From Heptranchias perlo (taxonomy: Eukaryota), in assembly GCF_035084215.1 (NCBI RefSeq), contig NC_090363.1, positions 2,604,001-2,652,996 on the forward strand: DNA of 48,996 nt, read 5' to 3'. Shown piece by piece: positions 2,952 through 41,253 of this stretch. Each line of letters opens with the position of its first letter. Positions within the stretch are counted from its first letter, which is position 1. Below the pieces are notes generated by a model, which saw only the letters and a program-made list of their open reading frames with translations, was not told the DNA's origin and did not search any database. The position numbers and the translations under genes were made by a program.

Positions 2952-3553
2952 TCAGTAAGCAAATATAACATTGTAGGTCACTTGGAATCCATTATCCCAA
3001 GCATAGAGCAGTTTGTCTATTGGGTTGTAGTCTATCTGGGTGAGGTAAGAGTAATTGCTTTGAATGGTCAGCCCCGGGTTAGACTCGAAGCCTGTGTGGG
3101 TGTCGAAGGCATAGGTGACGATGCCCTCCTTCTCCTTCTGCAGGTTCATGGCGTAAAAGACTCCGCAGATCAGGAAATAGTTGCCGTAGGAAGACCGTCT
3201 GAGTTGGGTTTTCCAAGTGGTCTCCTTCCTGGCGCTTAGGTCAATGGGATCCAACCGGCTGAGCACCAAGACCTCCTCGGGCAGGTAGCCAAAGTCGTTG
3301 GAGAAGTAGGCCACCCACAGGCCGCTCTCGTCCACCGTGAAGTCCACCTCCGAGTAGCCCTTCCACGCAGACAGGGTGGCGGACTGCGTCACCAGGTCGT
3401 CCAGTGAACTCCAGCTGGTGGCCGTCCTCTGCCGCAGGTCGTAGCGGATGATGTTCCGCGTGTAGGCCTTGTTGTAGTAGAAGGAACCATTGTACACGGC
3501 ATGGCCGGTCCCAATCCAACTGTAAGGCAGCTTGTACGTGTTACTCCAGCGAC
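2952..3553 (-). CDS. Olfactomedin-like 2 family gene, last exon (OLF beta-propeller, ends [10 protein letters not shown])
   Basis: Acceptor tttccAG|GT, stop at 2952. Motifs [42 protein letters not shown]. Joined CDS is 1584 nt (527 aa) with no internal stop. Confidence 0.95.
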
Positions 3554-3736
3554 CTGGAAACATGCAACCGGACCGTAAGCTGCCTTGGCGACCAAGAGTC
3601 GTCTTAACGTTGGGGAAATCATTCTCTGACCAATTCAATATCGCAACTGCCTGCCTTTAACATAGGAAAATGTCCCAAAGAGTTTTATAGTTTCACAGTG
3701 TCAGCCTCAGTGGATAGCACTCTCGCCTCTGAGTCA

Positions 3737-4620
3737 GAAGGAGCACTGCACTGTCGGAGGGTCAGTACTGAGGGAGCGCCGCGCTGTCGGAGGGTCAGTA
3801 CTGAGGGAGCGCCGCGCTGTCGGAGGGTCAGCACTGAGGGAGTGCCGCACTGTCGGAGGGTCAGCACTGAGGGAGCGCCGCACTGTCGGAGGGTCAGTAC
3901 TGAGGGAGCGCCGCACTGTCGGAGGGTCAGTACTGAGGGAGCGCCGCACTGTCGGAGGGTCAGCACTGAGGGAGCGCCGCGCTGTCGGAGGGTCAGCACT
4001 GAGGGTGCGCCGCGCTGTCGGAGGGTCAGCACTGAGGGAGCGCCGCGCTGTCGGAGGGTCAGTACTGAGGGAGCGCCGCACTGTCGGAGGGTCAGCACTG
4101 AGGGAGCGCCGCGCTGTCGGAGGGTCAGTACTGAGGGAGCGCCGCGCTGTCGGAGGGTCAGCACTGAGGGAGCGCCGCACTGTCGGAGGGTCAGTACTGA
4201 GGGAGCGCCGCACTGTCGGAGGGTCAGTACTGAGGGAGCGCCGCACTGTCGGAGGGTCAGTACTGAGGGAGCGCCGCACTGTCGGAGGGTCAGTACTGAA
4301 GGAGCGCCGCACTGTCGGAGGGTCAGTACTGAGGGAGCGCCGCACTGTCGGAGGGTCAGTACTGAGGGAGCGCCGCACTGTCGGAGGGTCAGTACTGAGG
4401 GAGTGCCGCGCTGTCGGAGGGTCAGTACTGAGGGAGCGCCGCACTGTCGGAGGGTCAGTACTGAGGGAGTGCTGCACTGTCGGAGGGTCAGTACTGAGGG
4501 AGCGCCGCGCTGTCGGAGGGTCAGTACTGAGGGAGCGCCGCACTGTCGGAGGGTCAGTACTGAGGGAGCGCCGCACTGTCGGAGGGTCAGTACTGAGGGA
4601 GCACTGCACTGTCGGAGGGG
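3737..4620 (+). repeat. 33-bp minisatellite (~27 copies) expanded from a SINE internal segment
   Basis: Unit GAGGGAGCGCCGCACTGTCGGAGGGTCAGTACT. Preceded by a SINE head (tcagtggatagcactctcgcctctgagtcagaag, ~3700-3740). Confidence 0.92.
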
Positions 4621-5469
4621 CTGTTTTTCTCCCCTTCGCCCTGTATCAATCAAAAACTAACCTCAGAGCCCCGCTCTGTGTCTTCACCTGTTTCAAATAT
4701 TTATCCAATTTTCCCTTGAAAGGGGTAAAAGTCTCCGCCTGAACCACTCTCGGTGGTTAAACCATTCCGTGCTCCCAACAACCCCCTGAGGAAAGCAAAT
4801 TCCTCCTGATCCCCTCTCCTCACACTTTGTGATAATTTTAAATCAATGACCTCTATTACCCCCTTTCCCTTCTCTGTTCCAATCATTTCCCACTCTTGTT
4901 CCTCCATCTTCCTGTATGTAAAAGCCCTCCCCCCCGCCCCCCTTTATCCTGCTGATTCATTGCTTCATCCACCCACATTCTGTAAAAACAAAACAAAGAT
5001 CAGAAAGTTCAGATTTCCGAGAATCCCAAGTTTCTGACTGTAGATGTGTTGAAATGGGGGGGTGGGTGGGGTCCCAGTGTCCCGAGGGAACCTCTCCCCA
5101 CCCCCACCCCCACCCCCACCCCCGCTTACAGCCGGACAGCTCCCGGACCGGCTAACTCACCCCAGCGCTCTCAGGGTTAAAGTGCACTGCCCGCAGGGAC
5201 ACAATGTTTACTGCGAGGGAGCGAACTGCTGGGTCCGTGAGATAACAGGACTTATTCTGACTCCATATATGGGAGCGAGCCTGCTCAGTGCTTAATCTCA
5301 AAGAGCTGTGCTGCTTTCAGCCGCTGCACAGGCCGAACACAAAGGGTTGCAGAGGTAACCACAGAGATACCGCTGCAACTAACCGGTCCCAGGAGCGACC
5401 GCCACCGCACGACCAATGCGCCTGCGTTGTTTGTCGCCGCTGTGTGATGCTTCAGCCGTACGGAGCCTT

Positions 5470-7132: not shown

Positions 7133-7318
7133 CCAGTTTGAAATGTTCCAGGTTGCGGAACTCGATCAGGGTGGTCCCAAAGAAGTAGTTGGCCACGTAG
7201 ACCCTCTCCTGATTGACCACCGAGTCCTTCATCCAAGCCCCTTCCGCACGCCCATAGCTGCTGTGAGTCTCCGGGTCCCTGATCATCACTAGTGTTCCGT
7301 CACAACCGTCTTCCCGAA
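7133..7318 (-). CDS. Olfactomedin-like 2 family gene, exon 6 (start of OLF domain: GCDGTL...YGRAEGAWMKD...YVANYFFGTTLIEFRNLEHFKL)
   Basis: Acceptor ttccAG|TT, donor G|GTAAGG, 186 nt, phase 1-1. Contains the olfactomedin signature GAWMKD. Confidence 0.93.
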
Positions 7319-9634: not shown

Positions 9635-9836
9635 TCATGTTTCCGTTGTCGTCCGAAGGTTTCCCGGTCACGGCCTCCGAGGAGAAGACTCCAGGACGAG
9701 CAGTGGGTGGGTGAGGCCTCGTGGTGGGCTTCTGGGCGATGGTGGGCTGAGGGTCTGGCCATTCTTTGGGGGCGCCATCCTTCGAGATGTTAGCTTTCAG
9801 GGACGGTGCCTCGCCTATGTTTAGCTTCACAGTGAC
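9635..9836 (-). CDS. Olfactomedin-like 2 family gene, exon 5 (Pro/Thr/Ser-rich linker)
   Basis: Acceptor gtcttgcAG|GTC, donor ATG A|GTGAGT, 202 nt, phase 0-1, matching the phase-1 start of the next exon. Unique sequence among CR1 fragments. Confidence 0.75.
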
Positions 9837-10987: not shown

Positions 10988-11170
10988 CTTCACTTTTCTC
11001 TCCTGCGGTAAGGGCTGTTGCTTCCTCAGTTGGGAGTTAAATTTGCTCAGCTCCTTCTTGACGGCCCTCATGGTGCTGGAGAGGTTCTGGTAGATGTGGC
11101 GGTGCTGAACGAGTTTTTCGAAGGCCTCCTTCAGAAGGACACTGACACTGGACACATTGCGTTCCACCCT
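10988..11170 (-). CDS. Olfactomedin-like 2 family gene, exon 4 (coiled coil RVERNVSS...MRAVKKELSKFNSQLRKQ...KVK)
   Basis: T-rich tract then aAG|AGG acceptor, donor AAG|GTACCT, 183 nt, phase 0-0. The KKELS motif is shared with OLFML2A (recalled). Confidence 0.75.
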
Positions 11171-12218: not shown

Positions 12219-12326
12219 CTTCTCCAGCTTCTTCAGTTGACTGTTGAGTTTGGCCGAGTAAGAGTTCAGTCTCTTGGTCTCTGCTTTGTCAAAGATCTCC
12301 TGAAGGTCGGCAGCCAGTGCCTGGAG
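12219..12326 (-). CDS. Olfactomedin-like 2 family gene, exon 3 (coiled coil LQALAADLQEIFDKAETKRLNSYSAKLNSQLKKLEK)
   Basis: Acceptor ttcccgtAG|CTC, donor AAG|GTAAGG, 108 nt, phase 0-0. Heptad pattern, aligns to the LQSMVDLLEG...NTLEE segment of OLFML2A (recalled). Not in the ORF track. Confidence 0.85.
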
Positions 12327-12915: not shown

Positions 12916-13308
12916 CGCCAGCTCCCCATTGACTCCAGGCCCCCGGCTCGAGTGCGGCCCTTGGCTGTGCTGCGATCGCGGGTATCTCTGGTCACAGTTC
13001 CCACCCCCTTTTCCCTATTTTTTCCCCCTCTGTCTCGTTCACCCGATCTCACTTGTCTTCCAGTTCTGATGAAGGAGTCACACCTGAGACAGTAACCGAG
13101 TTTTTCCTCTTTACAAACACTGACTGACCTGCCGCGTATCTCTGACGTTTTATTTTTATCTGTCCTGTTTATAATTGGATCTTATTGAACTTCAGACAGT
13201 GAGCCGCAGGCCCCACCGGCTATTCCTGGCCCTCTCGTGGTTTTGCCGCGTAAGCAAGCGCCAGAAGGCAGTGCCGGAGACTGCGCTGGGCGTGGGTGTG
13301 AAACTTAC

Positions 13309-13548
13309 TGTCGTCAAGTCCGAGACGAGCATCTTTGTCCTTCCCGCTGTCTGCTTGCTCTTGGCCTCACACTGGTCGACCTCGCAGTAACACTTGCACT
13401 TTGACCCGGGACCCGACCTCTCCAGTGGGTACAAGTCCTCGGGCCAAAGCTTGCCGGCCCTCGGCCTTGTGTCCTCGGGGCCGGGCTGTTTGACGATGCA
13501 CTTGCAGTGGCAGTCAGCCTCCTCCACCCTCCTCGATAAGGCCGGGTC
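13309..13548 (-). CDS. Olfactomedin-like 2 family gene, exon 2 (Cys-rich: DCHCKC...KCKCYCEVDQC)
   Basis: Acceptor ttcccctcttAG|GAC, donor ACA|GTAAGT, 240 nt, phase 0-0. Double CxCxC motif typical of OLFML2A/2B N-termini. Confidence 0.85.
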
Positions 13549-13564
13549 CTAAGAGGGGAAATAA

Positions 13565-14535
13565 TTACATAGAATTACATAGAATTTTACAGCACAGAAA
13601 CAGGCCATTCGGCCCAACAGGTCCATGCCGGTGTTTATGCTCCACACGAGCCTCCTCCCTCCCTACTTCATCTCACCCTATCAGCATATCCTTCTATTCC
13701 TTTCTCCCTCGTGTTTATTGAGCTTCCCCTTAAATGTATCTCCACTATTCACCTCAACCATTCCTTGTGGGAGCGAGTTCCACATTCTCACCACTCTCTG
13801 GGTGAAGAAGTTTCTCCTGAATTCCCGATTGGATTTATTAGTGACTATCTTATATTTATGGCCCCCTAGTCCTGGTCTCCCCCACAAGTGGACACATCTT
13901 CTCACTGTAGAGTTGGGAAAACCAGTGTATGGGAACGTTCACAGTAACGGTTTTATTAAAGAATCCATTTGATGTTCAGGACTCCGTCTTGAGACGGAAT
14001 CAGTTGAAACGAGGCCATTTCTGTGGAATGTCACAAGGCAGCTCAAATCACCGAGACCCCTTTGCAAACCTTTTACCGACTCGCGTCCTGTAAGAAATCC
14101 TAGGGTAGCTCTAACCTTCTAAAGAAAGACAGACTTGCATTTATATAGCGCCTTTCATGACCTCAGGATGTCCCAAAGCGCTTTACAGCCAATTAAGTAC
14201 TTTTGAAGTGTGGTCACTGTTGTAATGTAGGAAACACGGCAGCCAATTTGCGCACAGCAAGATCCCACAAACAGCAATGACCAGATAATCTGTTTTTTAG
14301 TGATGTTGGTTGAGGGATAAATATTGGCTCCAGGACACTGGGGAGAACTCCCCTGCTTTTCTTCGAAATAGTGGCCGTGGGATCTTTTACGTCCACCCGA
14401 GAGGGCAGACGAGGCCTCGGTTTATCGTCTTATCTGAAAGACGGCACGTCTGACAGTGCAGCACCTCCCTCAGTACTGCACCGAAGTGTCAGCTTCGATC
14501 TTGTGCTCAAGTCTCTGGAGTGGGGACTTGAACCC
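13565..14535 (-). mobile_element. CR1 3' fragment (13565-13905) and near-complete SINE (14125-14535, running into an N gap)
   Basis: GHKYKIVTNKSNREFRRNFFTQRVV peptide. SINE B-box GGTTCAAGTCCC at the gap edge. Confidence 0.75.
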
Positions 14536-14809
14536 NNNNNNNNNNNNNNNNNNNNNNNNNNNNNNNNNNNNNNNNNNNNNNNNNNNNNNNNNNNNNNNNN
14601 NNNNNNNNNNNNNNNNNNNNNNNNNNNNNNNNNNNNNNNNNNNNNNNNNNNNNNNNNNNNNNNNNNNNNNNNNNNNNNNNNNNNNNNNNNNNNNNNNNNN
14701 GAATCGGGTCTTATTTCCCGGTCGTAATTGATCCCGTTGCAGGCGAACAGCCTTGTGTATCAGACAGTAGAGCGACGCACACCTCTCCCGTCACTGACGC
14801 TGACCCCAC

Positions 14810-15183
14810 CAGCGAATAAAGGTTATCTGTTTTTAATACAACGGGTCATTCTCTGTCTTTCTCTTCCTTTCGGATGTTTCTCCCTCTCTCTCTCTGTCTT
14901 GTGTTCTGGCCGTTTGTGTATTCGGTGGTCCTGTAGGTAACATCACTCTGTCTGAACACTTTGATTGCCTTGACAACGGGCAGTTGGAAAGATTATCTGT
15001 AATCACCAGGTATTGTTCTCTGACTATAAATGCGGTAACATTCAAGGAGTCCCACACTTCACCTGACGAAGGAGATAATCTCCGAAAGCTTGTGATTTTC
15101 AAATAAAATCTTACAACACCTGGTGTTGTAAGATTCTTTACATTTGTCCACCCCAGTCCATCACCGGCATCTCCACATCATGA
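14810..15183 (+). mobile_element. Penelope-like element 3'/pLTR fragment in intron 1 of the OLFML2-like gene (5' boundary approximate)
   Basis: Shares the hammerhead motif and terminal tail with the 42901-43135 copy. Internal perfect 14-bp inverted repeat at 15107-15135. Confidence 0.65.
15058..15095 (+). ncRNA. Minimal hammerhead ribozyme motif (Penelope type)
   Basis: TTCAC-CTGACGA-a-GGAGA taa TCTCC-GAAA-GCTT-GTGA: intact cores, 5-bp stem II, TCAC/GTGA stem I. Confidence 0.65.
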
Positions 15184-15287
15184 TTTTTTAAGAATCACTC
15201 GACGCTGCCAGTATCGGTGCGTACTCTCAGCCCGCAGGCTGCCCTCCCCTCCTCTTCACCCCGTGTATGAAATAAACTCACCCTTAC

Positions 15288-15350
15288 CTGAGCCAAGGTG
15301 ATCAGCGCAGAGTTCAGGAGCAACGCAGCGACCGCCAGTCCAGCCCTCAT
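15288..15350 (-). CDS. Olfactomedin-like 2 family gene, coding exon 1 (signal peptide MRAGLAVAALLLNSALITLAQ)
   Basis: ATG at 15350, hydrophobic signal-peptide-like sequence, phase-0 donor CAG|GTAAGG. A second in-frame donor AGG|GTGAGT lies 6 nt further (exon end 15282). Confidence 0.75.
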
Positions 15351-15815
15351 CGCGTCACCGCGGTGAACGTCTCCCGCCCTGCGGCCCTTGCAACTACCGC
15401 AGCAGCAGAAACCCACTGACTCCAGGAGTGGGCATTGCACCGGTGATTAGGCTGCGGGGCTAGGGCTGGCTCTCTGTGCCTCCATCGTACGCCAGGGCTG
15501 AGTGGGGGGGGGGGTTAAAGGTGGGGGGGGGTGGGATGGAGTTGGGGGGGGGGGGAAGGGTTGTGAGCCTGAGGTAGAGGTGGCTCGTTGTACTAGAGTC
15601 CCATCCCGATGCTGCTTTGGGACAGGATGACGCCGCTCCCCACTGCCTAATGCCAAGTGTCCAGGGAAATCCCGAGGACTCGGGGCTCTCAGTCCAGACT
15701 ATCCCCGTACTGGCAGTGAAATCAGCATTTAAAGTGTATTCAGTGTCAAGCCTGGACAGCTCCCTGCACTACAGCGTCGTCCCCTTTCATCACTGCCATC
15801 CTGCCCCTGCCTCTC

Positions 15816-15849
<34 letters not shown>

Positions 15850-16349
15850 GTTATGAACGCACTTCGCCTGCCTTTGTTGTGCTGTCTTGTAGAAGTTGCT
15901 ACCTCCTGTTTAACCCGTTCCACACCTCCCAGCAACAACCCCCCCAACACAACACTCCACACATCAACTCCTCCCCAAACCTGGCCAACAGCACCATCTA
16001 CAGCCACAGCTTGATGCCAGCGGGCAGGAGGCCTGTTCCCCCGCGGGGTCCGCTGCTTCCCTCAGCTCCTCCGCTCTCCGGAAGTCGCTGACGCTGCCCC
16101 CCCCCCAGACTGGGCCTGGATCCAAACAGGCACCGACCCCTCACCCGAGTGGCCACCGCGTGAGCAGAGGCCGGATATTCGGCCACGCGGAGCGTCGCAG
16201 CTCCCAAAAAGCAGGAGGCTCTGGGTCGGTGATCAGGGGCAGCAACAGTCTGTGAATTTTTTTTTTTACACGCACACGGGCCAGGGGCACTGAGGCCAAC
16301 TGGTGTCATATCTCCACCCCGGAGGAGGAGGAGGAGGAGGAGGAGGAAC

Positions 16350-27312: not shown

Positions 27313-27314
<2 letters not shown>

Positions 27315-27358
<44 letters not shown>

Positions 27359-27450
27359 TATGCGCGAGTGCCTGCTTGTGTATGCGTGTACTTGCATGCG
27401 TGTGTGTATGTTTGTATGCGTGTGTGTGTGTGTGCGCGCGCATACGTGTG
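27315..27450. repeat. (TG)n microsatellite
   Basis: Pure, then degenerate, TG run just after the IgC exon donor. Confidence 0.95.
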
Positions 27451-28799
27451 AGACGATCTGCAGAAAGATGTGCGGGGTGGGGCGAGGGATATTTACACAC
27501 TGTCGACAATTTCTGCAGCTTTATCGATCAACTCAAAACGATCTACTGATTGGGTTTAATGGGCTGGGGGGTGGGGAAGGTAGAATCGGGAGGAGTTGTG
27601 GTGTTTGACAGTGTCTAATGCAAGGATTGCCTGAGCTCTGCCAGGAAACCCACCTTCTGGCTTAGAGTCGGGACTAGGGCCCGCCCCTAGTTTCAGAAAA
27701 TCTCTGCGCTCCTCCAATTCTGGCCTTTTGTCCATCCTCTTCCCCCATTTCCTTCGCCCCACCATTGGCGGCCGTGCCTTCGGCCACCTAGGCCCGAAGC
27801 TCTGGAATTCCCTCCCTAAACCTCTCCTCTCTCTTCTCAAAATCTACCTCTTTGACCAAGCTTTTGGTCGCCTGTCCTAATATCTCCTTATGTGGCTCGG
27901 TGACAAATTCTGTTTGATAATCGCTCCTGTGAAGCGCCTTGGGACGTTTCACTCCATTAAAGGTGCTGTATAAATACACGGTGTAGTAGTTGAATGAGTT
28001 ATGAGGAAAGGTTAGAAAATCTTCGGCCTCTTTCGCCTTAAAATGAGGCAAATGGAAGGGGGCGTCATGTATCGAGGTGCGTGAGATACAGATCATCCAC
28101 GATCTCATTGAATGGCGGAACAGGCTCGAGGGGCTGAATGGCCTCCTCCTGTTCCAATGAATAGAACGTTTATCGACTATGGGCACGTGGGGCTCGTTGT
28201 GAGGGTGTGAAAGGCCCTGGACCAACACAAGGTGATTCATTCTCTGTAGAAGAGGCTAGTAACGACCAGACCGAGGGGACAAATGGGCAGAAGGCAAGTT
28301 CCAGCGATGATGGTCAGAGATGCTTCTTCATACAACCCACTGATCGATCCCAGGAGCTCGCTGGATAGGGGAGGGGGAGGGGAATGGGGAACAGGAAAAC
28401 CTCTGGAGTCAACTAGAGGGACAGTTGGATTCCGTTGTGGGAAGTTGTAGGTTTCAAGGAGAGGATGAATCCGTTGGGCCGAACGGCCTGCCTCGTGCCT
28501 CTGTGGTTGGTTGGGCCTCACCTCCGGCCCAACGCCCTGGGATCTCGCATTCAGACTTGACGATCCGTGATACGCAGCCCGCCCTTCAATGGAATGAACC
28601 CGACCGCACTGGGCAGCGGGACTTGGGTTCAGCTCCACCTCCACCCCCACCCAAACTCCCGACCAAAACTTCCCCGTGATGAGGTCCTTCTGGTCAGATG
28701 GCCTGTTTGGTGGGGTGGGAAGGGAAGAGAGAGATTTTTTTTTTGGGCAAACAAAATCTGCCAAAAGCAGCTGCTAACTTACATCATCGAGTTACACCG

Positions 28800-29343
28800 A
28801 AACGACAGCACAGAAACAGGCCATTCGGCCCAACAGGTCCATGCCGTGTTTATGCTCCACACGAGCCCCCTCCCTCCCTACTTCATCTCACCCTATCAGC
28901 ATATCCTTCTATTCCTTTCTCCCTCATGTGTTTATCCAGCTTCCCCTTAAATGTATCTACACTATTCACCTCAACGACTCCTTGTGGGAGCGAGTTCCAC
29001 ATTCTCACCACTCTCTGGGTAAAGAAGTTTCTCCTGAATTCCCTATTGGATTTATTAGTGACTATCTTATATTTATGACCCCCTAGTTCTGGTCTCCCCC
29101 ACAAGTGGAAACATCTTCTCTACGTCTACCCTATCGAAACCCTTCCATAATCTTAAAGATCTCTACCAGGTCACCCCTCAGCCTCCTCTTTTCTAGAGAA
29201 AAGAGCCCCAGCCTGTTCAGCCTTTCCTGATAAGGATATCCTCTCAGTTCTGGTATCATCCTTGTGAATCTTTTTTTGCACCTTCCCCAGTGCCTCTACA
29301 TCCTTTCTGTAATATGGAGACCAGAACTGTGCACAGTACTCCA
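28800..29343 (-). mobile_element. CR1 LINE 3' fragment
   Basis: Same family as 24930-25562. Confidence 0.85.
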
Positions 29344-29469
29344 GGTGGTACTGAGGAACGCTCATTAATTCCGGATCACAGGGACAACAATGGAGGTGAA
29401 GAGGGCCAGCTGAGTTATTGCATCTTCTTGTTGGTTTTTGAAGTAATTTCTTCTGTTTTACTTCCCCAG

Positions 29470-29589
29470 TTGAATTCTTTCCCAAGATGTCAGGCTGGCT
29501 GTATGCCTTCCTGCTGATATTGTTCACGGTCATTGCCCTCGTCGCAGGCCTGTTCGTGTACTTCAGGAATCAACAGAAGGATATCAAAG
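29470..29589 (+). CDS. Butyrophilin-like gene, transmembrane exon (EFFPKMSGWLYAFLLILFTVIALVAGLFVYFRNQQKDIK)
   Basis: ttccccAG|TT ... G|GTACGG, 120 nt, phase 1-1. FFP..S.W juxtamembrane motif of butyrophilins, then a ~23-residue hydrophobic span and basic stop-transfer residues. Confidence 0.9.
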
Positions 29590-30673
29590 GTACGGGATAT
29601 CTGCCATCTGACAGGACGAGAATTCGTGATTTCCCCCAGTTGAAGTCGGTCAACTTTCGTGTATAGAAAGGGCCAAACCCGCGACCTCTACCACCTAGAA
29701 GGACACGGGCAGCAGGCACATGGGGCCAACACCACCTGCACGTTCCCCTCCAAGTCACACACCATCCCGACTTGGAAATATATCGCCGTTCCTTCATCGT
29801 CGCTGGGTCAAAATCCTGGAACTCCCTTCCTAACAGCACTGTGGGAGAACCGTCACCACACGGACTGCAGCGGTTCAAGAAGGCGGCTCACCACCACCTT
29901 CTCAAGGGCAATTAGGGATGGGCAATAAATGCCGGCCTCGCCAGCGACGCACACATCCCATGAATGAATATATTAAAAAAATTTTAGCAACTGACCCAAC
30001 AACATCTTAGAGTCTCGTGCAGATAAACGTCTCATGAGAATTCAGTGGAGGAGAGATGGATGGAACCTCATTATCTGTGAGGTTAAAGGGAGTGAGGACT
30101 GACGAGAGAGAGGCTTTTGAAGACAGGTGGTGAAGTGGCAGAGAATTAATTTGGGGAGGGGGGGGAATATGAGTGAGAAATCAGCGGCAGAACAGGGGGA
30201 GGTGGGGGTGCCAGCATTGGGCACGTCTGAGGGGTGGGTATATCAGGAGCCTCCTCCACCTCCATCTCCACCCAATAACCTCTTCCACCTCCAGCTCCGC
30301 CCAATAACCTCCTCCACCTCCATCTCCGCCCAATAATCGCCTCTGACTCTCCCTCCTCCCCCTCCCCCCTCTATCTCCCCTCCACCAAGCCCGTCCATCT
30401 CTCGGAATATACCGGAATGTATACGTATTGACGTATCGAGGAGATGCAGTGAGATCACGAGTAGTTTCTCAGTCCCGAGATTCTGTTGGACCGTTGAGAA
30501 TGTTCCACGTCTGTTATTGTCCAATCCCGGACAGTGTAGGGCAGCGTTCATTTCCAATCAGTTCTTGCGCGGGGCGTGGTGGTGGACGGGATTGGTCGGT
30601 CCACGAACTCCGTCCAGTTCCCAAGAGGCTCTGCGATGTTAATGATTCATTCTCTCCCCTTCTTGTTTTTCAG

Positions 30674-30700
30674 AATTACAGAAGCGGCCTACAATAGAAG
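30674..30700 (+). CDS. Butyrophilin stalk micro-exon 1 (27 nt, ELQKRPTIE)
   Basis: Long polypyrimidine tract + cAG, donor G|GTGAGG, phase 1-1. Confidence 0.8.
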
Positions 30701-30711
30701 GTGAGGATCAA

Positions 30712-31112
30712 AGAACAAACTTGCATTTCTACAGCACCTTTCACCACCTCAGGACGTCCCAAAGCTCTTTACAACCAATGAAGTCCTTTTTGAAGTGTAG
30801 TCACTGTTGTAATGTGGGAAATTCGGCAGCCGATTTGTGCACAGCAAGATGCCACAAACAGCAATAATGACCAGATAATTTTGTTTTTAATGATGTTGAT
30901 TGAGGGATAAATATTGGCCAGGACACCGGGGAGAACTCCCCCCTGCTGTTTGAAATAGTGGGCGTGGGATCTTTTACCCCCACCCGAGAGGGGCAGACGG
31001 GGCCTCGGTTTAACGAATCATCTGAAAGACGGCACCTCTGACAGTGCAGCACTCCCTCAGTACTGCACCAGGAGTGTCAGCCTAGATTTTGTGCTCAAGT
31101 CCCTGGAGTGGG
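30712..31112 (-). mobile_element. SINE inserted about 11 nt downstream of micro-exon 1
   Basis: SINE tail and body similarity. Confidence 0.78.
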
Positions 31113-31219
31113 AGGAGAGGGGCTCCCAACACCACTGAGTATTCTTCAAAATTGGGTTTTGCTTTAAACAGTGAGTGTTCGAGACTGTCTGCTGTTTACT
31201 CACTGTCAGACCTGCTGGA

Positions 31220-32160
31220 TCCCCCTCTGGGACTGGGCGGTACAGTGGGTCAGACACTGTCCTTTCCCCCTCTGGGACTGGGTGGTGCAGTGGGTCAGAC
31301 ACTGTCCTTTCCCCCTCTGGGACTGGGTGGTACAGTGGGTCAGACACTGTCCTTTCCCCCTCTGGGGCTGGGTGGGACAGTGGGTCAGACACTGTCCTTT
31401 CCCCCTCTGGGACTGGGTGGTACAGTGGGTCAGACACTGTCCTTTCCCCCCTCTGGGACTGGGTGGTACAGTGGGTCAGACACTGTCCTTTCCCCCCTCT
31501 GGGACTGGGTGGTACAGTGGGTCAGACACTGTCCTTTCCCCCTCTGGGACTGGGTGGGACAGTGGGTCAGACACTGTCCTTTCCCCCTCTGGGACTGGGT
31601 GGTACAGTGGGTCAGACACTGTCCTTTCCCCCTCTGGGACTGGGTGGTACAGTGGGTCAGACACTGTCCTTTCCCCCCTGTGGGACTGGGCGGGACAGTG
31701 GGTCAGACACTGTCCTTTCCCCCTCTGGGACTGGGTGGTGCAGTGGGTCAGACACTGTCCTTTCCCCCTCTGGGACTGGGCGGGACAGTGGGTCAGACAC
31801 TGTCCTTTCCCCCTCTGGGACTGGGTGGTGCAGTGGGTCAGACACTGACCTTTCCCCCCTCTGGGACTGGGTGGTACAGTGGGTCAGACACTGTCCTTTC
31901 CCCCTCTGGGACTGGGTGGTACAGTGGGTCAGACACTGTCCTTTCCCCCTCTGGGACTGGGTGGTATAGTGGGCCAGACACTGTCCTTTCCCCCTCTGGG
32001 ACTGGGCGGGACAGTGGGCCAGACACTGTCCTTTCCCCCTCTGGGACTGGGCGGGACAGTGGGTCAGACACTGTCCTTTCCCCCTCTGGGACTGGGCGGG
32101 ACAGTGGGTCAGACACTGTCCTTTCCCCCTCTGGGACTGGGCGGGACAGTGGGTCAGACT
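31220..32160. repeat. 45-bp minisatellite (~21 copies)
   Basis: Unit TCCCCCTCTGGGACTGGGTGGTACAGTGGGTCAGACACTGTCCTT, occasionally with one extra C. Confidence 0.95.
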
Positions 32161-32384
32161 CTGTGTTCTGAGCCTGGGGTTTTGGCCGATTATTGGGAGT
32201 TTTATGGTGGAATTAACCCACATTAGACCCGGGAGAATGTTCAACACTGAGACAAGGTGCAGAAAATGGAAAGTGTCCCATTCCCCAGAACCGATATCGC
32301 CCGAGTGATTAAATGATCAAAATCCTTCTCCCTGGTGTTTCCAGTATGTTTCGTGATTTGTGTCTCTCTCTCTTTGTATTTTAG

Positions 32385-32411
32385 GATATGAACTGATGAA
32401 GAGAAATCAAG
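32385..32411 (+). CDS. Butyrophilin stalk micro-exon 2 (27 nt, GYELMKRNQ)
   Basis: tctctctctttgtattttAG, donor G|GTGAGT, phase 1-1. Confidence 0.8.
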
Positions 32412-32889
32412 GTGAGTCACAGTTCCAGAACGTTCCAAACACAGGGCTGGGAGTATCAAGGAGAGAATTGTTGGCATCTAATGCCATCGGAGGGGGGGGG
32501 CGCGTAGAGGGGGTAACTTTGACCTAACTCACCCAGTGGGAATGTGACTGGATTTGATTGACCGCCTGCTGGAAAATCAGTGTGTGGGTGTCAGGTCGTC
32601 ACCCCATGGTTGAATAACTTTCTGCCCCTCCCTGCCTGGGCCCACAACATGGGTGGGTGGTCCCCATGGAACCTCTCCATTATAACTGAGCACCTAAAGG
32701 AGAGGTGGGGAGGACATTTTGGAGAGGGGGGGGCGGTATTCTTTATAGGTGCTGGATTCCCGCTGGCTGTCGTCTTGTTGGGACATGGAATGCCTGAGCA
32801 GACACAGCGGGAGAAGCAGAATCCAGAATAACTTCTAACGGGGAAGTGGATGAATATTTGAAAAAGAAAAATATTAAAGGGTAAGGGGA

Positions 32890-33425
32890 AATGGGGGAGA
32901 GGGAACAGAGGGTGATGGGCCGAATGGGGGCAGGGCAGGGGAATGGGAATGAGGGGAGAGATCTGTCAGAGAGAGGGCACAGAGAGTGATGGGCCGAATG
33001 GGGGCAGGGCAGGGGAATGGGAATGAGGGGAGAGATCTGTCAGAGAGAGGGAACAGAGGGTGATGGGGTGAATGGGGAAAGGGCAGGGGAATGGGAATGA
33101 GGGGAGAGATCTGTCAGAGAGAGGGAACAGAGGGTGATGGGCCGAATGGGGAAAGGGGCAGGGGAATGGGAATGAGGGGAGAGATCTGTCAGAGAGAGGG
33201 CACAGAGAGTGATGGGCCGAATGGGGAAAGGGGCAGGGGAATGGGAATGAGGGGAGAGCTCTGTCAGAGAGAGGGAACAGAGGGTGATGGGGTGAATGGG
33301 GAAAGGGCCGGGGTATGGGAATGAGGGGAGAGGTCTTTCCGAGAGAGGGAACAGAGGGTGATGGGGTGAATGGGGAAAGGGCCGGGGAATGGGAATGAGG
33401 GGAGAGGTCTTTCCGAGAGAGGGAA
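32890..33425. repeat. ~74-bp G-rich minisatellite (~7 copies) inside a CR1 3' end
   Basis: Unit GAGAGGGAACAGAGGGTGATGGGCCGAATGGGGAAAGGGCAGGGGAATGGGAATGAGGGGAGAGATCTGTCAGA. Confidence 0.85.
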
Positions 33426-33603
33426 CAGGCACCGTGGTATTAACGGCCTCCTCCTGTGCTGTGGAATTCTACTCTGGGGATCTCGGGGAAACTCGGGACC
33501 CCGAGTTTAAGATTTCGAGGGGAACCCCACAGGGTGTGAGTGAAATTGTAGGAATAATTTGTGTTGGTCTTATTTTAATTTTATTCATTTGCTTTCCTTT
33601 CAG

Positions 33604-33624
33604 ATAATCTCACAGATGAACTGA
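33604..33624 (+). CDS. Butyrophilin heptad micro-exon 3 (21 nt, DNLTDEL)
   Basis: gctttcctttcAG, donor A|GTAAGA, phase 1-1. Classic 21-nt BTN/TRIM heptad exon (xxLxxEL). Confidence 0.82.
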   Translation: MISQMN

Positions 33625-33903
33625 GTAAGATTTCGGACTTAAAGGATTATAATAAATACAGGAGGGATTTACTAAATATTTCCGTCACACTATTGAGAAT
33701 TCCCCAGTTGATATAAAAATAGGGAATGGAGTGGGGGAATATCCCCATGTATCGAAGTTTGTATTGGCAGGGAACACAAGCCGGTCCCTACGAACCCCTC
33801 TCCCTTCAAGATCCTCTTCTCCACCGGAAGTGTGGTTACCGCTTGGGGTCGATACTCCTGTTCCTCACACCACCTGGGCGCAGGGTGTGTCAGCCCCGGG
33901 TCG

Positions 33904-33939
<36 letters not shown>

Positions 33940-33942
<3 letters not shown>

Positions 33943-34455
33943 CTCTGAGTCAGAAGGTCGTGGGTTCAAGTCCCACTCCAGAGACCTGAGCACAAAATCT
34001 CCCCGGCGCAGTACCGAGGGAGTGCTGCACTGCCGGGGGTGCCGTCTCTCGGATGAGACGTTAAACCGAGGCCCCGTCTGCCCTCTCGGGAGGACGTAAA
34101 AGATCCCACGGCCACTATTTGGAAGAAGAGCAGGGGAGTTCTCCCCGGTGTCCTGGGCCCAATATTTATCCCTCAACCAACATCACTAAAACAGATTATC
34201 TGAGTCATTTATTACATTGGTGTTTGTGGGATCTTGCTGTGCGCAAATTGCTGTGTTTCCTGCATTACAACAGTGACTACACTTTAAAAGCATTTCATTG
34301 GCTGTTTACATGTTTGCCTTCTCGTCTGATTTTCCTGGAAGGAAAGAAAGATCTTGCATTTATATAGCGCCTTTCACAACCTCAGGATGTCCCAAAGTGA
34401 TTACAGCCAATGAAGTACTTTTTTGAAGTGTAGTCACTGTTGTAATGTAGGAAAT
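33940..34455. mobile_element. SINE (+, 33940-34300) and SINE tail (-, 34340-34455), preceded by (CT)n
   Basis: B-box GGGTTCAAGTCCC at ~33962 and SINE body. Confidence 0.8.
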
Positions 34456-35166
34456 AAAATAATTTGTGCCCCCCTTCCACTGTATTAAGCTATTTTCCCT
34501 ATTCCAATACACGCTATCCTACAAGGCAAAGCTGCCCCCTCCCCCTGCCCCCCTCTTTCCCACCGCCCCCCCCACTGTCCGTTTCCATCCCTGGTGGTAA
34601 GATTTCTGGAGATTAACTTTGAACTTTATGTCGAGGGTCCTCGGTCACTTCCAATGGCAGACAGAGCAGGACGTTGAGACCACCTGACCCGTACCTACCC
34701 GGGGTGTGTGTCTTGCCTCGCCAGTCACTGTGGCTGATACACGGTCTCGTTGCCGCCCGGGCTCGACGGGCCCAAGTGTACAGCCCGTCCCTGCCATATT
34801 ACCAGAGGTACAATGAAGCTGGGACTCGTACAGAGCTTCGGCGGGTAAACGGGGTTAAGATACAGATCAGCCACGATCTTATTGAAGGGCGGGTCAGGCT
34901 CGAGGGGCTGAATGGCCTCCTCCTGTTCCTGGTTCATCGCGCAGTAAAGAAAGAAAGACGTGCATTCCTGCAGTGCCTTTCACCACCTCAGGACGTCCCA
35001 ATGAAACGCAGTCACTGTTGAAAAGTAGGAAACGCTCGGCTTCTCCTGGGCTGTAAGGTTGTAACTGAATTTGAGTCCGGTGCGTTGGGTAAGGGGGATG
35101 TAGAAAGGGTGTTTGTGGCCCCGACACTGAGTAATTTTGTCGTCTTTCCTTCTTGCTTCCTTCTAG

Positions 35167-35187
35167 ATAAGCTCCATGGCGACCTGG
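35167..35187 (+). CDS. Butyrophilin heptad micro-exon 4 (21 nt, NKLHGDL)
   Basis: tcttgcttccttctAG, donor G|GTAAGT, phase 1-1, heptad xKLxxDL. Confidence 0.82.
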
Positions 35188-36879
35188 GTAAGTGGCTAAC
35201 TGAGGGTTTAATTTCCCTCTGTTCAGTTAGAGTTACAGACAGGACTGTACACAATACACGTCGGGTTTGGGAGTTGCTGCACAGTGTGGGTTGTTGGGTT
35301 CCGGGTATCTTTATGGGCCGTGTAGGTGCACAACATGGAGCTTAAATCTTGTAACGTGCCATAATGGAGACGGGATATCTCTGGGGCAGGATTAAAATTA
35401 AATACATATGTCTAATTCACAAATCAAAAACCTTGCACATCCTGTGGCCCTTTTTCTGTGCTAACTTCCCGTGTCCATATTTATAAACGGGGCCTTGCCT
35501 TTCCAAAACTTTTGTCGGGCTGTAATTACGGCCTTCTGCCAGCGGAGGTGCTGCAGTGACGTGACTGACAGGAGGGTGCGGTTACAGTGTGACAGGTTTA
35601 CATAGGGAGCTCCCATTGTAGGTGTGAATGAAAGAATTTGTAACGAGGATATAAAAATAAGGACAGAGTGTATGACTTCAAAGAGGGGATTGAATTATGT
35701 CTGTGCACCGTGATCCTGTTGGGTTTATATAGGATATTGTCATATATCCCTATTGCCCTGATGTGGAGTATTATTGGATATTGTACATCCTTCATTTCTA
35801 AAACAAATCTGGGGACGAGGAAACACTGAAACATCTGTTTAATACTCTTTATTAAATCAAGTCAATGAAATAATAAAACACAACCCCTTACGTGCAGTGC
35901 ATATGATTATAAGTACCAATTATAACTCACACGCCAAGGACTCCTCAGAAGGTCGCAAGTGTCTTGTCTCGACTGCTTACACTCGTCTTAGAAAGACTAA
36001 ATCAAACATACCCCAAGGAGCTCCAGTGTCTCTGTCTTTAAATGTTTAGTTACGTCCTCCTAACCTAACGCCATTATGTCAACACATTCTAACCCGGTCT
36101 GGTTAACCTCCCTTCAATGTGTCTGTGCAGTCAAATCTGTTTACTCACTAATGAGAAACAGTGGGCATCCGTTACGGCCTCTCTCTTGTCTCTTCCCAGT
36201 CCATTCCCTACCAGATTACCTCCCTACAATCTCCTCGACCGATTTACTGTATTTCTTCATCTCTTCTCATGGACAGGCAGTGAGGTATTGTCTCCACAGC
36301 TCCAGGCCTGTGTGGCCATTGCAGAATGATATTAGTATGTGGACATATATTTTAAAAGCTTACCATGGCTGTTCTACCTGGTATACCTATACTTACACCG
36401 TGAGGGGAGAGGCCAGGGTCTGTACTCCGCAGGGGAGGGTGAGAGTGGGATTCTACATCAGGGAGGAGGTGTTTCAGAATGCCACATTGTAACATGCAAA
36501 CGGTGAAACGTCAATCATTGTCTCAGGAAAACCTCTCTTGTTTTTGCACTTTTAAAGCAAATAATCTGATTTCTGTTGGTACTTATTGCCACATAAAAGG
36601 CCGGCAGAACTAAATATCCCGCTTGGAATGATCCCTAACTGCTCGAAAAATCTCCTCCGTTAACACCAAATTCAGCAAAGCAAAGCCAAACCTGCCCTTT
36701 TGTGGAAATGCAGCAGGGGTTTGGGGCAGTTCAGGAGTTGGGGTGTGAGAACAGACCAGGAGTGAATTCAGACTGCTCAGGAAAACCGGCAAACTCGGGC
36801 TTGGCAGGTCCTCCCTGTTCTGACTCTAATTGTGGACAGGCCAGACTCCTCTTTTTAAAAAAAAATGGCAGATTGGTGC

Positions 36880-37440
36880 ACAGGCCATTCGGCCCAACTG
36901 GTCTAGGCCGGTGTTTATATTCCATACGAGCTTCCTCCCACTCTAATTCCCTCTTCCCACCCTGCCCCCCCCCCTCCCATATCCCTCTATTCCCTTCTCC
37001 CTCATGTCTGCATCAAGCCTCCCCTTAAATACATCTCTGCTTCACCCACTCCATGTGGCAGTGAGTTCCACATTCTCACCGCTCTCTGTGTAAAGAAATT
37101 CCTCCTAAATTCTTTATTTGATCCATTAGTGGCTATCTTATATTTATATCCCCTTGTCCTGGACTCTCATAGGAACAGGAGGAGGCCATTCAGCCCTTCG
37201 ATCCTGTACCGCCATTCAGTTCGATGTGCACCTCAACTCCATTTACCCTCCTTTGCTCCATATCCCTCGATACCCTCACCCAGAAAAAAATCCCTCCACC
37301 TCCGTCTCCCCCACAAGTGGAAACTGTTTCTCCACATCCACCCTGTCGAAACCCTTCATAATTTTAAAGGCCTCTATCAGGTCACTCCCTCAGTCTTCTC
37401 TTTCCCAGAGAATAAAGCCCCAGCCTGTTCAGTCTTTCCT
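36880..37440 (-). mobile_element. Degenerate CR1 3' fragments
   Basis: CAGGCCATTCGGCCC tail and GAGTTCCACATTCTCACC segment. Confidence 0.65.
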
Positions 37441-37698
37441 GGTCGGAGCTACAAGATCGAGGGGGAGAAGGGGGAGCAACTGGGAGAGTGGCGATTTCCC
37501 AAAATGTTTCTGTAAAGGTTTAAAGTGCGTCATTGCTATTGTATAGTTAAACTTGTCTGCAGGTCCTCAGCCCTGAGGTGGTCTAATCGATATCTCATCA
37601 CGTTTACACTCAAAGGTTAAAAATGCATTCAGTAAAAGCCCCCATCGTCGCCAGGTGCGTAAAACTGATCACTAATGGTTGTCTCTTTTTCCTTTCAG

Positions 37699-37725
37699 AC
37701 CAGATTCGCTGTTTATCAAAAACAG
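37699..37725 (+). CDS. Butyrophilin stalk micro-exon 5 (27 nt, DQIRCLSKT)
   Basis: tctctttttcctttcAG, donor G|GTAGGG, phase 1-1. Confidence 0.72.
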
Positions 37726-38334
37726 GTAGGGCCCGGGATATCATTTATTCATTCTCGGGATGTGGGCGTCGCTGGCGAGGCCGGCATTTCTTGCCCGTTC
37801 CTTAGTTGCCCCTTGAGAAGGTGGTGGTGAGCCGCCTTCTTGAGCCGCTGCAGTCCGTGTGGGGAAGGTTCTCCCGCAGTGCTGTTAGGAAGGGAGTTCC
37901 AGGATTTTGACCCAGCGACGATGAAGGAACGGCGATATATTTCCAAGTCGGGATGGTGTGTGACTTGGAGGGGAACATGCAGGTGGTGTTGTTCTCATGT
38001 GCCTGCTGCTCTTGTCCTTCTAGGTGGTAGAGGTTGCGGGTTTGGGAGGTGCTGTCGAAGATAATGATCGGGGGGAATCTACCCGCTGTGCTCACAGTGT
38101 GACTAATACACAAGGCCAGAATCTTCTGCTGCCATTATGAGCGAGCAAATTCGCGATGTGTTTCTGTGCCTGTTCTTTAACTCTTTTAATACCTCGGCTA
38201 AAACAGAGGACAGATCGATGTTATGGTGTCGTTTAGTCTCTATCTTAGACGTTCTCTTTTAGACACTTCCTAATAACTGAATAAACGTATCATGAACCAG
38301 ACGTGTTAATCTGTCATTCTTATTATTCTTTCAG

Positions 38335-38361
38335 CAATTCGGAGAATTACCAGTGTTGCAG
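38335..38361 (+). CDS. Butyrophilin stalk micro-exon 6 (27 nt, AIRRITSVA; pre-B30.2 exon)
   Basis: ttattattctttcAG, donor G|GTAGGA, phase 1-1. Size and position match the 27-nt exon that precedes B30.2 in BTN genes. Confidence 0.78.
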
Positions 38362-38439
38362 GTAGGACTTGCTGCTCACCAGAGATTCCATATTGAATTG
38401 TGTGTGGGAGGGGCAATTGGCGTCATTCTGTTCGGATCT

Positions 38440-40617
38440 TACAGCACAGAAGGAGGCCATTCAGCCCATCGTGCCTGTGCCGGCTCTTTGAAAGAGCTAT
38501 CCAATTAGTCCCACTCCCCCTGCTCTTTCCCCCATAGTCCTGCAATTTTTTCCCTTCAAGTATTTATCCAATTCCCTTTTGAAAGTTATTATTGAATCTG
38601 CTTCCACCGCCCTTTCAGGCAGCGCATTCCAGATCAGAACAACTCGCTGCGTAAAATAAAAATTCTCATCTGCCCTCTGGTTCTTTTGCCAATCACCTTA
38701 AATCTGTGTCCTCTGGTTACCGACCCTCCTGCCACTGGAAACAGTTTCTCCTTATTTACTCTATCAAAACCCTTCATGATTTTGAACACCTCTATTAAAT
38801 CTCCTCTTAACCTTCTCTGCTCTAAGGAGAACAATCCCAGCTTCTCCAGTCTCTCCACATCACTGAAGTCCCTGGTTTACACTTTTCACCTGCCCGATTT
38901 AAGGTCCCTCCTCTCCCCAACACCAGGTGGTGATCCCTGGCCGGTTCCACCTCATGGTTTCCCCGATGGGGCCTCCCTTCCTCGGTTTATTTCCCTCCTC
39001 CGCTCCAGCGTGCCCTGGTGGCAGCTCGGCCAGGATGGGGAACTTGCCGCCTGGGAGAGCGGGAGACGCAAACGCCCCCACCCACCCCTCCGCCCCCGAT
39101 GCTGTGGCTACTCGGCTCTTCCAATGGAGTTGAATCGACCGTGGGAACTTGCTCTAATCCGGTATTGTGAACAGTTCTGGCCTCCATATTACAGAAAGGA
39201 TGTAGAGGCACTGGAGAAGATGCAAAAAAGATTTACAAGGATGATACCAGAACTAGGATATCCTTATCAGGAAAGGCTGAACAGGCTGGGGCTTTTTTCT
39301 CTAGAAAAGAGAAGGCTGAGGGGTGACCTGATAGAGGTCTTTAAAATTATGAAAGGGTTCGATAGGGTTGATGTAGAGAAGATGTTTCCATTTGTGGGCC
39401 ATAAATATAAGATAGTCACTAATAAATCCAATAGGGAATTCAGGAGAAACTTCTTTACCCAGAGAGTGGTGAGAATGTGGAACTCGCTCCCACAAGGAGT
39501 AGTTGAGGTGAATAGTGGAGATACATTTAAGGGGAAGCTGGATAAACACATGAGGGAGAAAGGAATAGAAGGATATGGTGATAGGGTGAGATGAGGTAGG
39601 GAGGGAGGAGGCTCATGTGGAGCATAAACACCAGCATAGACCAGTTGGGCCGAATGGCCTGTTCCTTCCTGTGCTGTAGTTTTGATGTAACTCGATGCCA
39701 CCCCAACACATTCACTTGGTACCCACTCCGCAATGGTGGTGCAGAGTTTCAGGCAGAGCCTTTAAAGTGAGGGAATGGAACTGGCCAGTGGCAGGGATGC
39801 TCCCTACCTGTAGAGTTACCCTCCCCTTTAAAGTACTTGCTCACACAATTACCCTCCCCTTTAATTGCTTATTATTTAGCCATAGTTACCCTCCCCTTTA
39901 AGTACCTGTGTTGGTAACTATCCACAGTGTCACCTTTGCTGGTGTCCATATTTTTCATAGAATTACATAGAGCGTACAGCACAGGCCATTCAGCCCAGAG
40001 GGTCCATGCTAGCCTTTTAGGCTCCACACCAGCCTCCTCCCAAATTAGCAGCTGCTAACTTACATCATCGAGTTACCACGAAAATACAGCACAGAAACAG
40101 GCCATTCGGCCCAACTGGTCCATGCTGGCGTTTATGCTCCACCCGAGCCCCCTCCCTTCATACGTCATCTCACCCTATCAGCATATCCTTCTATTCCTTT
40201 CTCCCTCATGTGTTTATCGAGCTTCCCCTTAAATGTATCTCTGCTATTCGCCTCAACTACTCCTTGTGGGAGTGAGTTCCACATTCTCACCACTCTCTGG
40301 GTGAAGAAGTTTCTCCTGAATTCCCGATTGGATTTATTAGTGACTATCTTATATCCGTGACCCCTAGCTCTGGTCTCCCCTTCAAATGGAAACATCTTCT
40401 CTACATCTACCCTACGAGCCCTTTTCATAATCTTAAAGACCTCGATCAGGTCATCCCTCAGTCTTCCCTTTTCTAGAGAAAAGAGCCCCAGCCTGTTCAG
40501 TCTTTCCTGATAGTACGAATCTCTCAGTTCTGGTATCATCCTAGTAAATCTTTTTTGCACCTTCTCCAGTGCCTCTATATCCTTTTTGTAATATGGAGAA
40601 CTGTTCACAGTGCTCCC
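38440..40617. mobile_element. CR1 3' fragments in the last BTN intron: 38440-38872 (-), 39160-39690 (+), 40085-40617 (-)
   Basis: CR1 ORF2 C-terminal peptides in ORFs 38634, 38686 and 40165. Confidence 0.85.
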
Positions 40618-40726
40618 TAGTGTTTTATGTTTGCCCACAGTTAGCTCACCTTTAATATCCTGTCTTGGCGAAACCCTTCCCAGTTCCGAGTTTAAAACCT
40701 GCCCCCTTTCTTTCTCACCCCTCCAG

Positions 40727-41253
40727 TTTCCGTGACCCTGGACCGTGACTCCGCACACTGTAACCTCAGGGTATCTCCTGATCTGACCAGCGTGAGCTAC
40801 AGTGCAGGAGCCAAGGTTCCCATCGACATCTCCAGGAGGTTCCAGTCCAGATTATCCGTCCTGGGGAGGGAAGGGCTCGTCACCGGGAGACACTACTGGG
40901 AGGTGAAAGTGGGAAGCAAGTCCGACTGGGACCTGGGAGTAGCCGAGGATTCGGTGGCAAGGGCGGGAACGCTGTCCCTCAATCCTCAGGACGGATACTG
41001 GACCATTGGGTGTCAGGAGGGCTTCTACTGGGCCAATGGCATCACCGGATTGCGAATCTCTACCAAGGCGAAGCTCCGGCGGATCGGAATATACGTCAAC
41101 TACGAGGCGGGAAGGGTTCTGTTCTGCGATGCCACCTCGTACTCCCACCTCCACAGCTTCACCGGCAAATTCAAGGGAACGATCTACCCCTTCTTCAATC
41201 TCATGCCAACCGATGAAGAATTGAGGATTTGTACGGTCGCGCCCCAAGCCTAG
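40727..41253 (+). CDS. Butyrophilin-like gene, B30.2 (PRY-SPRY) terminal exon
   Basis: ctttctcacccctccAG|TT, stop TAG at 41251-41253. Motifs VTLD, RF...SVLG, GRHYWEV, WDLGVA, GYWTI, IGIYVNYEAG, YPFF. Joined CDS is 1488 nt (495 aa) with no internal stop. Confidence 0.95.

Follow-up and report, generated by a model that had tools for sequence, protein, structure and literature searches.

An intact third OLFML2 paralogue in the shark Heptranchias perlo, very likely an ohnologue of the chromosome bearing the major histocompatibility complex

The window studied here is a stretch of 48,996 nucleotides from the shark Heptranchias perlo (RefSeq assembly GCF_035084215.1, contig NC_090363.1, positions 2,604,001 to 2,652,996 of the forward strand), in which a gene of the OLFML2 family of olfactomedin-like proteins and a butyrophilin-type (BTN) gene stand head to head. 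According to our analyses, the former is an intact third OLFML2 paralogue, distinct from OLFML2A and OLFML2B (2A and 2B), and very likely an ohnologue of the chromosome bearing the major histocompatibility complex (MHC), a reading to which we assign a probability of about 0.87. For this gene we have coined the name OLFML2C (C in comparisons with 2A and 2B). The vertebrate genome duplications are its likely origin and, in Heptranchias, it likely sits in MHC class III beside ATF6B. OLFML2C lies on the minus strand, with seven coding exons, introns that are all GT-AG and an open frame of 527 amino acids (aa), the product of which is 100% identical to XP_067829962.1, a Heptranchias perlo record titled “olfactomedin-like protein 2A”.

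The same species carries canonical copies of both known paralogues, i.e., a 2A protein of 641 aa (P0461) on a 37.6-Mb contig and a 2B protein of 978 aa (P0339) on an 89.4-Mb contig, apart from the 21.1-Mb contig of the window protein, so that the separate 2A and 2B loci sought by the earlier note on this DNA, which had proposed a third paralogue, are both present. Three OLFML2 proteins encoded on three differently sized contigs are also found in Carcharodon, Heterodontus, Hemiscyllium, Stegostoma, Hypanus, Amblyraja and the axolotl. Within Heptranchias, the olfactomedin (OLF) domain of the window protein is 60% identical to that of 2A and 54% identical to that of 2B, against 74% between 2A and 2B. 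When exon 7 was used as a query, the 13 top rows among the best 120 of 1,198 matches were all from sharks and rays (73–100% identical), followed by a lungfish (62%) and then by canonical 2A proteins (about 60%), including the 2A of the same shark. Public records nevertheless call OLFML2C “OLFML2A”, or “OLFML2B” for a few isoforms. One record, P0317 (Scyliorhinus torazame, 883 aa), is a RING-type prediction that contains OLFML2C; this model was likely fused with the adjacent gene on the same strand, comparable to S. canicula, in which the neighbouring gene is 71 bp away. A search of the ESM Atlas returned 2A, 2B and myocilin-like clusters only, while the 240 N-terminal residues of the lungfish C protein recovered itself alone from 811 candidates, which implies that word-based searches are blind to divergent members of the group.

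Phylogenetic trees were computed from the OLF domain (56 of 73 domains, after exclusion of fragments and of excess outgroup rows), from the N-terminal region plus OLF (36 chosen rows), and from chosen sets of 27 and 26 rows for the lamprey test and the hagfish-rooted analysis, respectively. In the OLF-only tree, the 51 rows of the OLFML2 ingroup are set apart from five outgroup olfactomedin rows with 100/99 support. In the OLF-only, N-terminal plus OLF and hagfish-rooted trees alike, the window protein falls within a third clade supported at 100/100, which holds cartilaginous and bony vertebrates and, in the first two trees, gathers sharks, rays, lungfish, axolotl and paddlefish, plus gar in the OLF-only tree. 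As this clade unites cartilaginous and bony vertebrates, the duplication predates their split. The third paralogue of the earlier note thus holds, since the protein nests inside neither 2A nor 2B, while the accompanying idea of retention in cartilaginous fish stands for sharks and rays but not as a restriction to them: the gene is also present in lungfish, axolotl, paddlefish and gar, and probably in reedfish.

In principle, the gene could instead be OLFML2A or OLFML2B itself, evolving fast, a duplicate of either confined to sharks, or a recombinant of the two, as the database names might suggest; moreover, among ten columns diagnostic of 2A versus 2B, the window protein is 2A-like at six, 2B-like at one and neither at three. 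This identity has next to no probability in our view, considering that canonical 2A and 2B coexist in the species, that approximately unbiased (AU) tests reject the grouping of shark C with cartilaginous 2A (p 2.7e-5) and with shark 2B (p 2e-37), and that bony-vertebrate C members have private residues in common with the window protein. A shark-only duplicate is ruled out by the AU tests, a 2A/2B recombinant or mosaic by the diagnostic columns and by ancestral residues. Indeed, the OLF motifs quoted in the earlier note in favour of a mosaic are all found in the protein, but the mosaic itself dissolves: YNG and ICGV are present in shark 2A too, and are thus ancestral, YSW being the only one that C and 2B have in common as opposed to 2A, hagfish and tunicate. 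Ser339, which falls outside the diagnostic-column filter, is common to C and 2B and is the best single character favouring C+2B. The apparent mosaic is best read as retained ancestral residues combined with fast change. From the node shared by 2A and C, the window protein has accumulated 1.11 changes per site and Heptranchias 2A 0.13, which corresponds to an estimated rate about nine times faster in OLFML2C.

The location of the gene argues for the MHC chromosome. In the tables of PMC10751288, the MHC chromosome 34 of the sawfish features EHMT2, SLC44A4, then further on atf6b (plus strand), an “olfactomedin-like protein 2A” (minus strand) and three butyrophilins (plus strand), and finally, after other genes, CYP21A2 and TNXB. 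This “OLFML2A-like” gene (LOC127585923) is tail-to-tail with atf6b and head-to-head with a butyrophilin 2.3 kb off, as in the window. In the reedfish MHC, the order is fkbpl, atf6b (plus strand), “olfactomedin-like protein 2A” (minus strand; LOC114642770) and vps52, while the true olfml2a is on chromosome 9, of the para-9 type (PMC10751288). In the same tables, a gene without a name stands tail-to-tail with ATF6B in each of three further species, white shark, catshark and lungfish. Contig sizes agree with this picture: in all four species for which the chromosome end is readable there, the contig encoding the C protein matches the MHC chromosome, i.e., catshark (163,470,629 vs. a final MHC-chromosome gene at 163,380,576), lungfish (1,974,114,035 vs. 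a final gene at 1,973,431,111), white shark (115,848,844 vs. 115,613,256) and axolotl (848,590,089 vs. 848.6 Mb). The 19.9-Mb sawfish C contig is compatible with MHC-chromosome genes tabulated up to 17.3 Mb. The chimaera serves as a control, its 2A contig (24,702,275) matching a para-9 scaffold that ends at 24,701,768 and bears wdr38; reedfish, lungfish and chimaera all have 2A on their para-9 chromosome. Two sheet titles in the PMC10751288 supplement disagree with their legends: the catshark sheet bears the name chr37 but is assigned to chromosome 13 in legend and table, and the second lungfish sheet bears the name chr12 but is assigned to 16 in the legend.

Altogether, these data support the mapping of OLFML2C orthologues to the MHC chromosome itself rather than to the chr19-like one, even though the lungfish alone cannot separate these two paralogons, as both are on its chromosome 9. 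They also make a counterpart inside the MHC region likely in sharks other than the sawfish, in lungfish and in axolotl. Consequently, the MHC paralogon suggested by the earlier note finds support in the sawfish and reedfish tables and in the contig sizes, and, of the two chromosomes it had left open, the MHC one stands and the chr19-like one does not. Its view of the butyrophilin adjacency as a relic of the paralogon did not survive: at this position, the catshark carries a same-strand gene and the reedfish vps52, which marks the butyrophilin as a younger neighbour, and it is ATF6B that is the ancient neighbour of OLFML2C.

In human 1q23, the gene order is ATF6, OLFML2B, NOS1AP (PMC4074351). 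Block duplication predicts just this, an ATF6–OLFML2 pair present on each of two paralogous chromosomes. The strand orientation of the human ATF6–OLFML2B pair is presumed here. These adjacencies bear on a competing origin, in which 2A or 2B was duplicated or transposed on a small scale in the jawed-vertebrate stem and landed by chance in the MHC. Trees by themselves cannot distinguish such an event from genome doubling, and the monophyly of 2A without C is supported at 86/79 to 97/79 only. Yet, C stands tail-to-tail with a gene, ATF6B, whose paralogue neighbours human OLFML2B, and because this adjacency mirrors ATF6–OLFML2B, a chance landing is improbable. We therefore regard a small-scale origin as very improbable.

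The date of the duplication is less firm than the location, and another possibility is that C predates the jawed-vertebrate doubling, having split at or before the first doubling, with an orthologue kept in lamprey; it would still be an MHC-chromosome paralogue, the date alone being different. This older origin draws on a partial and very divergent lamprey fragment (P0150, Lampetra fluviatilis, CAM9108293.1), which groups with C at 96/93 and obtains its highest score against the C profile (200 vs. 166/172 bits). In the same profile comparison, 20 low-scoring representatives for which the C profile came out slightly ahead were counted as distant olfactomedins or fragments. Such a position for the fragment is unexpected, as an origin restricted to jawed vertebrates would not predict a lamprey orthologue, and an arrangement of 2A+2B excluding C is not rejected (p 0.10). 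However, the branch of P0150 is long (1.8–2.8) and its composition biased, which is the usual setting of false joins, so that its grouping with C may reflect long-branch attraction or else an older origin and true orthology. In addition, the best trees favour 2A+C (96/84 in the OLF-only tree, 85/84 in the N-terminal plus OLF tree), and PMC10751288 pairs the MHC and para-9 chromosomes as sisters. For these reasons, we consider the older date unlikely, and prefer a genome-duplication ohnologue.

Several observations count against this preferred reading. Regarding the branching order, C+2B is no more rejected (p 0.16) than 2A+2B, and the backbone collapses (C+2B at 47/29) when the tree is rooted by the hagfish alone, without the tunicate and without the long C rows. 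The exclusion of the lamprey fragment from 2A+C is borderline (p 0.05). Chromosome assignments are size matches rather than accession matches, the reedfish gene was assigned to C by position only, and, ATF6B lying outside the window, the location in Heptranchias is taken from its orthologues. Finally, no C-type match was found in amniotes, teleosts and frogs among the matches listed or named, from which divergent copies could have escaped.

From a structural perspective, OLFML2C has the architecture of its paralogues. Exon 1 (coding part 15288–15350, with a 5' untranslated region (UTR) extending to at least 15531; spliced contigs) holds the start codon and 21 hydrophobic residues that resemble a signal peptide (predicted helix 3–19). 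Exon 2 (13309–13548; gene model, alignment and spliced contigs) encodes the two CxCxC motifs (C34/36/38 and C72/74/76), which align with those of 2A and 2B. Exons 3 (12219–12326) and 4 (10988–11170) each encode a predicted helix, and exon 5 (9635–9836) a short, low-confidence linker (gene and structure models for the three exons). The OLF domain begins in exon 6 (7133–7318) and continues in exon 7 (2952–3553), which ends with the stop codon, followed 75 nt beyond by a poly(A) signal (Pfam OLF and gene model for both exons; Pfam score of 199 bits over the two). In a structure model built from a 42-row alignment (mean predicted local distance difference test, pLDDT, of 65; mostly 80–96 in OLF and below 50 at the N-terminus), helices spanning residues 87–187 precede a propeller that matches noelin and myocilin.

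The best sequence match of OLFML2C is OLFML2A (photomedin-1), which is also its preferred sister in two of the three rooted trees; both have two CxCxC motifs, after an N-terminus that in C is only signal-peptide-like, a helical region and a C-terminal OLF domain with calcium ligands. They differ in the linker (64 aa in C vs. 178 aa in 2A, at the chosen cut), in the N-terminal region (30% identity) and in Trp389 and Cys453, the former lacking in C and the latter mostly so, and they are separate genes on separate contigs. OLFML2B (photomedin-2) has in common with C its architecture, a neighbour of the ATF6 family and Ser339, but it features a Ser/Thr-rich linker of 515 aa and an N-terminal extension, both absent from C. 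As for the OLF domains of noelin/OLFM1 and myocilin, they have the same propeller fold (TM score of about 0.86 over the target) and align at the calcium ligands and the ring-closing disulfide, in spite of an identity of about 35%, unlike N-terminal halves and a serine in C in place of the cation-pi aromatic. Based on the noelin calcium ligands and top-face cation-pi pair named in PMC4488277, alignment points to D398, N452 and D502 as the ligands of the window protein and C271 and C457 as its ring-closing disulfide. All three ligands are present in 22/22 2A and 2B rows and in 11 of the 14 elasmobranch C rows, the middle one being absent in two skates and the sawshark. Two are kept in the lungfish C protein and none in axolotl (P0132), paddlefish (P0136) and gar (P0141). 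Position 389, in a low-confidence loop, corresponds to the noelin aromatic of the top-face pair and to a stretch of private changes already marked in the earlier note; it is Trp in all 22 2A and 2B rows and in none of the 18 C rows.

The product of OLFML2C is likely a matrix protein that is secreted, binds calcium and has an altered ligand face, and whose function we infer to have decayed or changed in bony vertebrates. Photomedins form disulfide-linked oligomers. As glycoproteins of the matrix, they bind chondroitin sulfate E (review PMC5487772). By analogy, OLFML2C would be secreted via its putative signal peptide, oligomerised via its N-terminal cysteines and helices, and would offer calcium-stabilised olfactomedin propellers to partners in the matrix or at the cell surface; since its top-face loop appears rebuilt, its partner in sharks would differ from that of the photomedins. 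In the history that we propose, an ATF6–OLFML2 pair would have been present on the proto-MHC chromosome, after which the 1q copy would have retained ATF6 and OLFML2B, the 9q copy OLFML2A, and the MHC copy ATF6B and OLFML2C. The latter would have sped up and shed its calcium ligands in several bony vertebrates, before being dropped in amniotes, where ATF6B would have remained alone.

The earlier note had described a divergent OLFML2-family/BTN pair across about 3.7 kb, and so it proved: both frames are open, and the distance from the OLFML2C ATG to the first BTN exon is 3.7 kb (about 3.6 kb between transcribed ends, 8.1 kb from ATG to ATG). Transcription was assessed by comparing four runs, all from one sample, with window positions 12950–19380; none is recorded as RNA, their probable RNA status resting on the spliced contigs. 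In two of the four, a single contig joins exons 2 and 1 of OLFML2C with zero mismatches and reaches 15531, while its preceding 1,391 letters equal, by arithmetic only, the size of exons 3–7 plus 110 nt of 3' UTR. On the BTN side, a contig from one of the four runs spans 19091–19178 and stops at a GT donor, which defines a likely non-coding first exon (19091–19177, plus strand), and the rest of this contig agrees in size with an exon at 23389–23486, a match of length from which we infer the joint. The gap between the transcribed ends (15532–19090) consists chiefly of high-copy repeats (about 16390–18970), with a CpG-rich patch beside each gene.

The arrangement raises the possibility that OLFML2C and the butyrophilin are co-regulated from one bidirectional promoter, OLFML2C having been co-opted into immune tissue. 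The genes are head to head here, in sawfish (with the 2.3-kb gap) and, judging by strand, in white shark (7.5 kb) in the tables of PMC10751288, and both the MHC location and the fast evolution of OLFML2C would fit. Against this, the gap of about 3.6 kb is mostly repeats and contains two separate CpG-rich patches, and the neighbour differs in catshark and reedfish, as seen above, which leaves a shared promoter improbable. Instead, the butyrophilin would be a neighbour with its own promoter.

The BTN gene (plus strand) has 10 coding exons (23426–41253) and an open frame of 494 aa. Its signal-like N-terminus (coding part 23426–23486; gene model) is followed by an IgV exon (24509–24853) and an IgC exon (26984–27292; Pfam C2-set_3, butyrophilin-like), both from domain search and gene model, by a transmembrane exon (29470–29589; gene model), by five exons of 21 or 27 nt predicted from splice signals alone (30674–30700, 32385–32411, 33604–33624, 35167–35187, 37699–37725) and by a B30.2 (PRY-SPRY) exon with the stop codon (40727–41253; domain search and gene model). 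The gene thus has the complete layout of butyrophilins (BTN1/2/3, BTNL), i.e., IgV, IgC, transmembrane, short exons and B30.2, but no subfamily is prominent: in similarity lists, the best IgV matches are B7-H3 and MOG, and those of B30.2 are pyrin, then BTN3A3/2A1. Our literature search on shark butyrophilins listed papers on mammals.

Some other features of the window were also recorded. A 23-bp GC-rich tandem array follows shortly after the first BTN exon (19396–20671), and 33-bp arrays are found in introns and beyond (3740–4619, 22148–22646 and, by eye, about 44370–44760). Two kb beyond the BTN stop, a CpG-rich patch (43300–43480) with a GT donor-like site near 43405 (by eye) may be the first exon of a following gene, a second butyrophilin being 2 kb on in sawfish. 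The A/T-richer segment at about 41860–42300, with CCAAT, TATA and poly(A)-like words, resembles a solitary long terminal repeat (by eye). The four N runs (14536–14700, 43493–43656, 43677–43843 and 48197–48969) leave the coding exons untouched.

The human genome has two OLFML2 genes and is not known to have a third. Together with the lack of C-type matches mentioned above, this suggests that OLFML2C was probably lost in mammals. A late loss would fit the biased gene loss from the MHC-bearing subgenome described in PMC8302630. The literature that we searched describes neither a third OLFML2 nor a link between OLFML2 and the MHC, although subscription papers, ohnologue databases, Supplementary Table 9 on the bowfin MHC (PMC8423624) and the axolotl chromosome 13 annotation, which lay outside this search, may already include the gene. 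The main texts of PMC10751288, PMC12619710, PMC8423624 and PMC8302630 mention no olfactomedin or OLFML, and the axolotl MHC paper (PMC12619710) and one supplement of it give no match to olfactomedin, OLFML or ATF6. Like OLFML2, the families of the MHC paralogon (BRD, NOTCH, PBX, RXR, PSMB, C3/4/5) have copies on the MHC and paralogous chromosomes (PMC10751288), but OLFML2 is unnamed in the main text of that article, unflagged in the tables consulted, and its MHC copy is without a known human counterpart.

The class III regions of sawfish chr34 and reedfish chr1 contain further unflagged genes, i.e., Lhx2/9-like, carnitine acetyltransferase-like, TMEM268, RGS3-like, prostaglandin E synthase-like, NPDC1-like, QRFP and RNF183 (PMC10751288, supplement). 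We regard these 9q-type genes as candidates for additional ohnologues kept in the fish MHC. Their human namesakes are presumably on 9q. In a broader and quite unlikely scenario, C would be an original MHC class III resident with a new, possibly immune role acquired through its rebuilt ligand face; its calcium site would have been shed separately in ray-finned fish and amphibians, before the gene was lost in amniotes; a true lamprey orthologue would date the MHC block before the split between jawed and jawless vertebrates; and C would belong to a whole group of 9q-type ohnologues that persist unnoticed in the MHC of sharks and bichirs.

While ohnologues retained in sharks are a familiar class of finding, OLFML2C, if the preferred reading is right, adds a gene family and a pair marker (ATF6–OLFML2B vs. 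ATF6B–OLFML2C) to the MHC paralogon, and corrects a mislabelling repeated over shark, ray, lungfish, axolotl, paddlefish and gar records. It would represent part of the ancestral class III region, apparently missing from the human MHC, and the stepwise loss of its calcium ligands offers a testable case of ohnologue decay or functional change across vertebrates.

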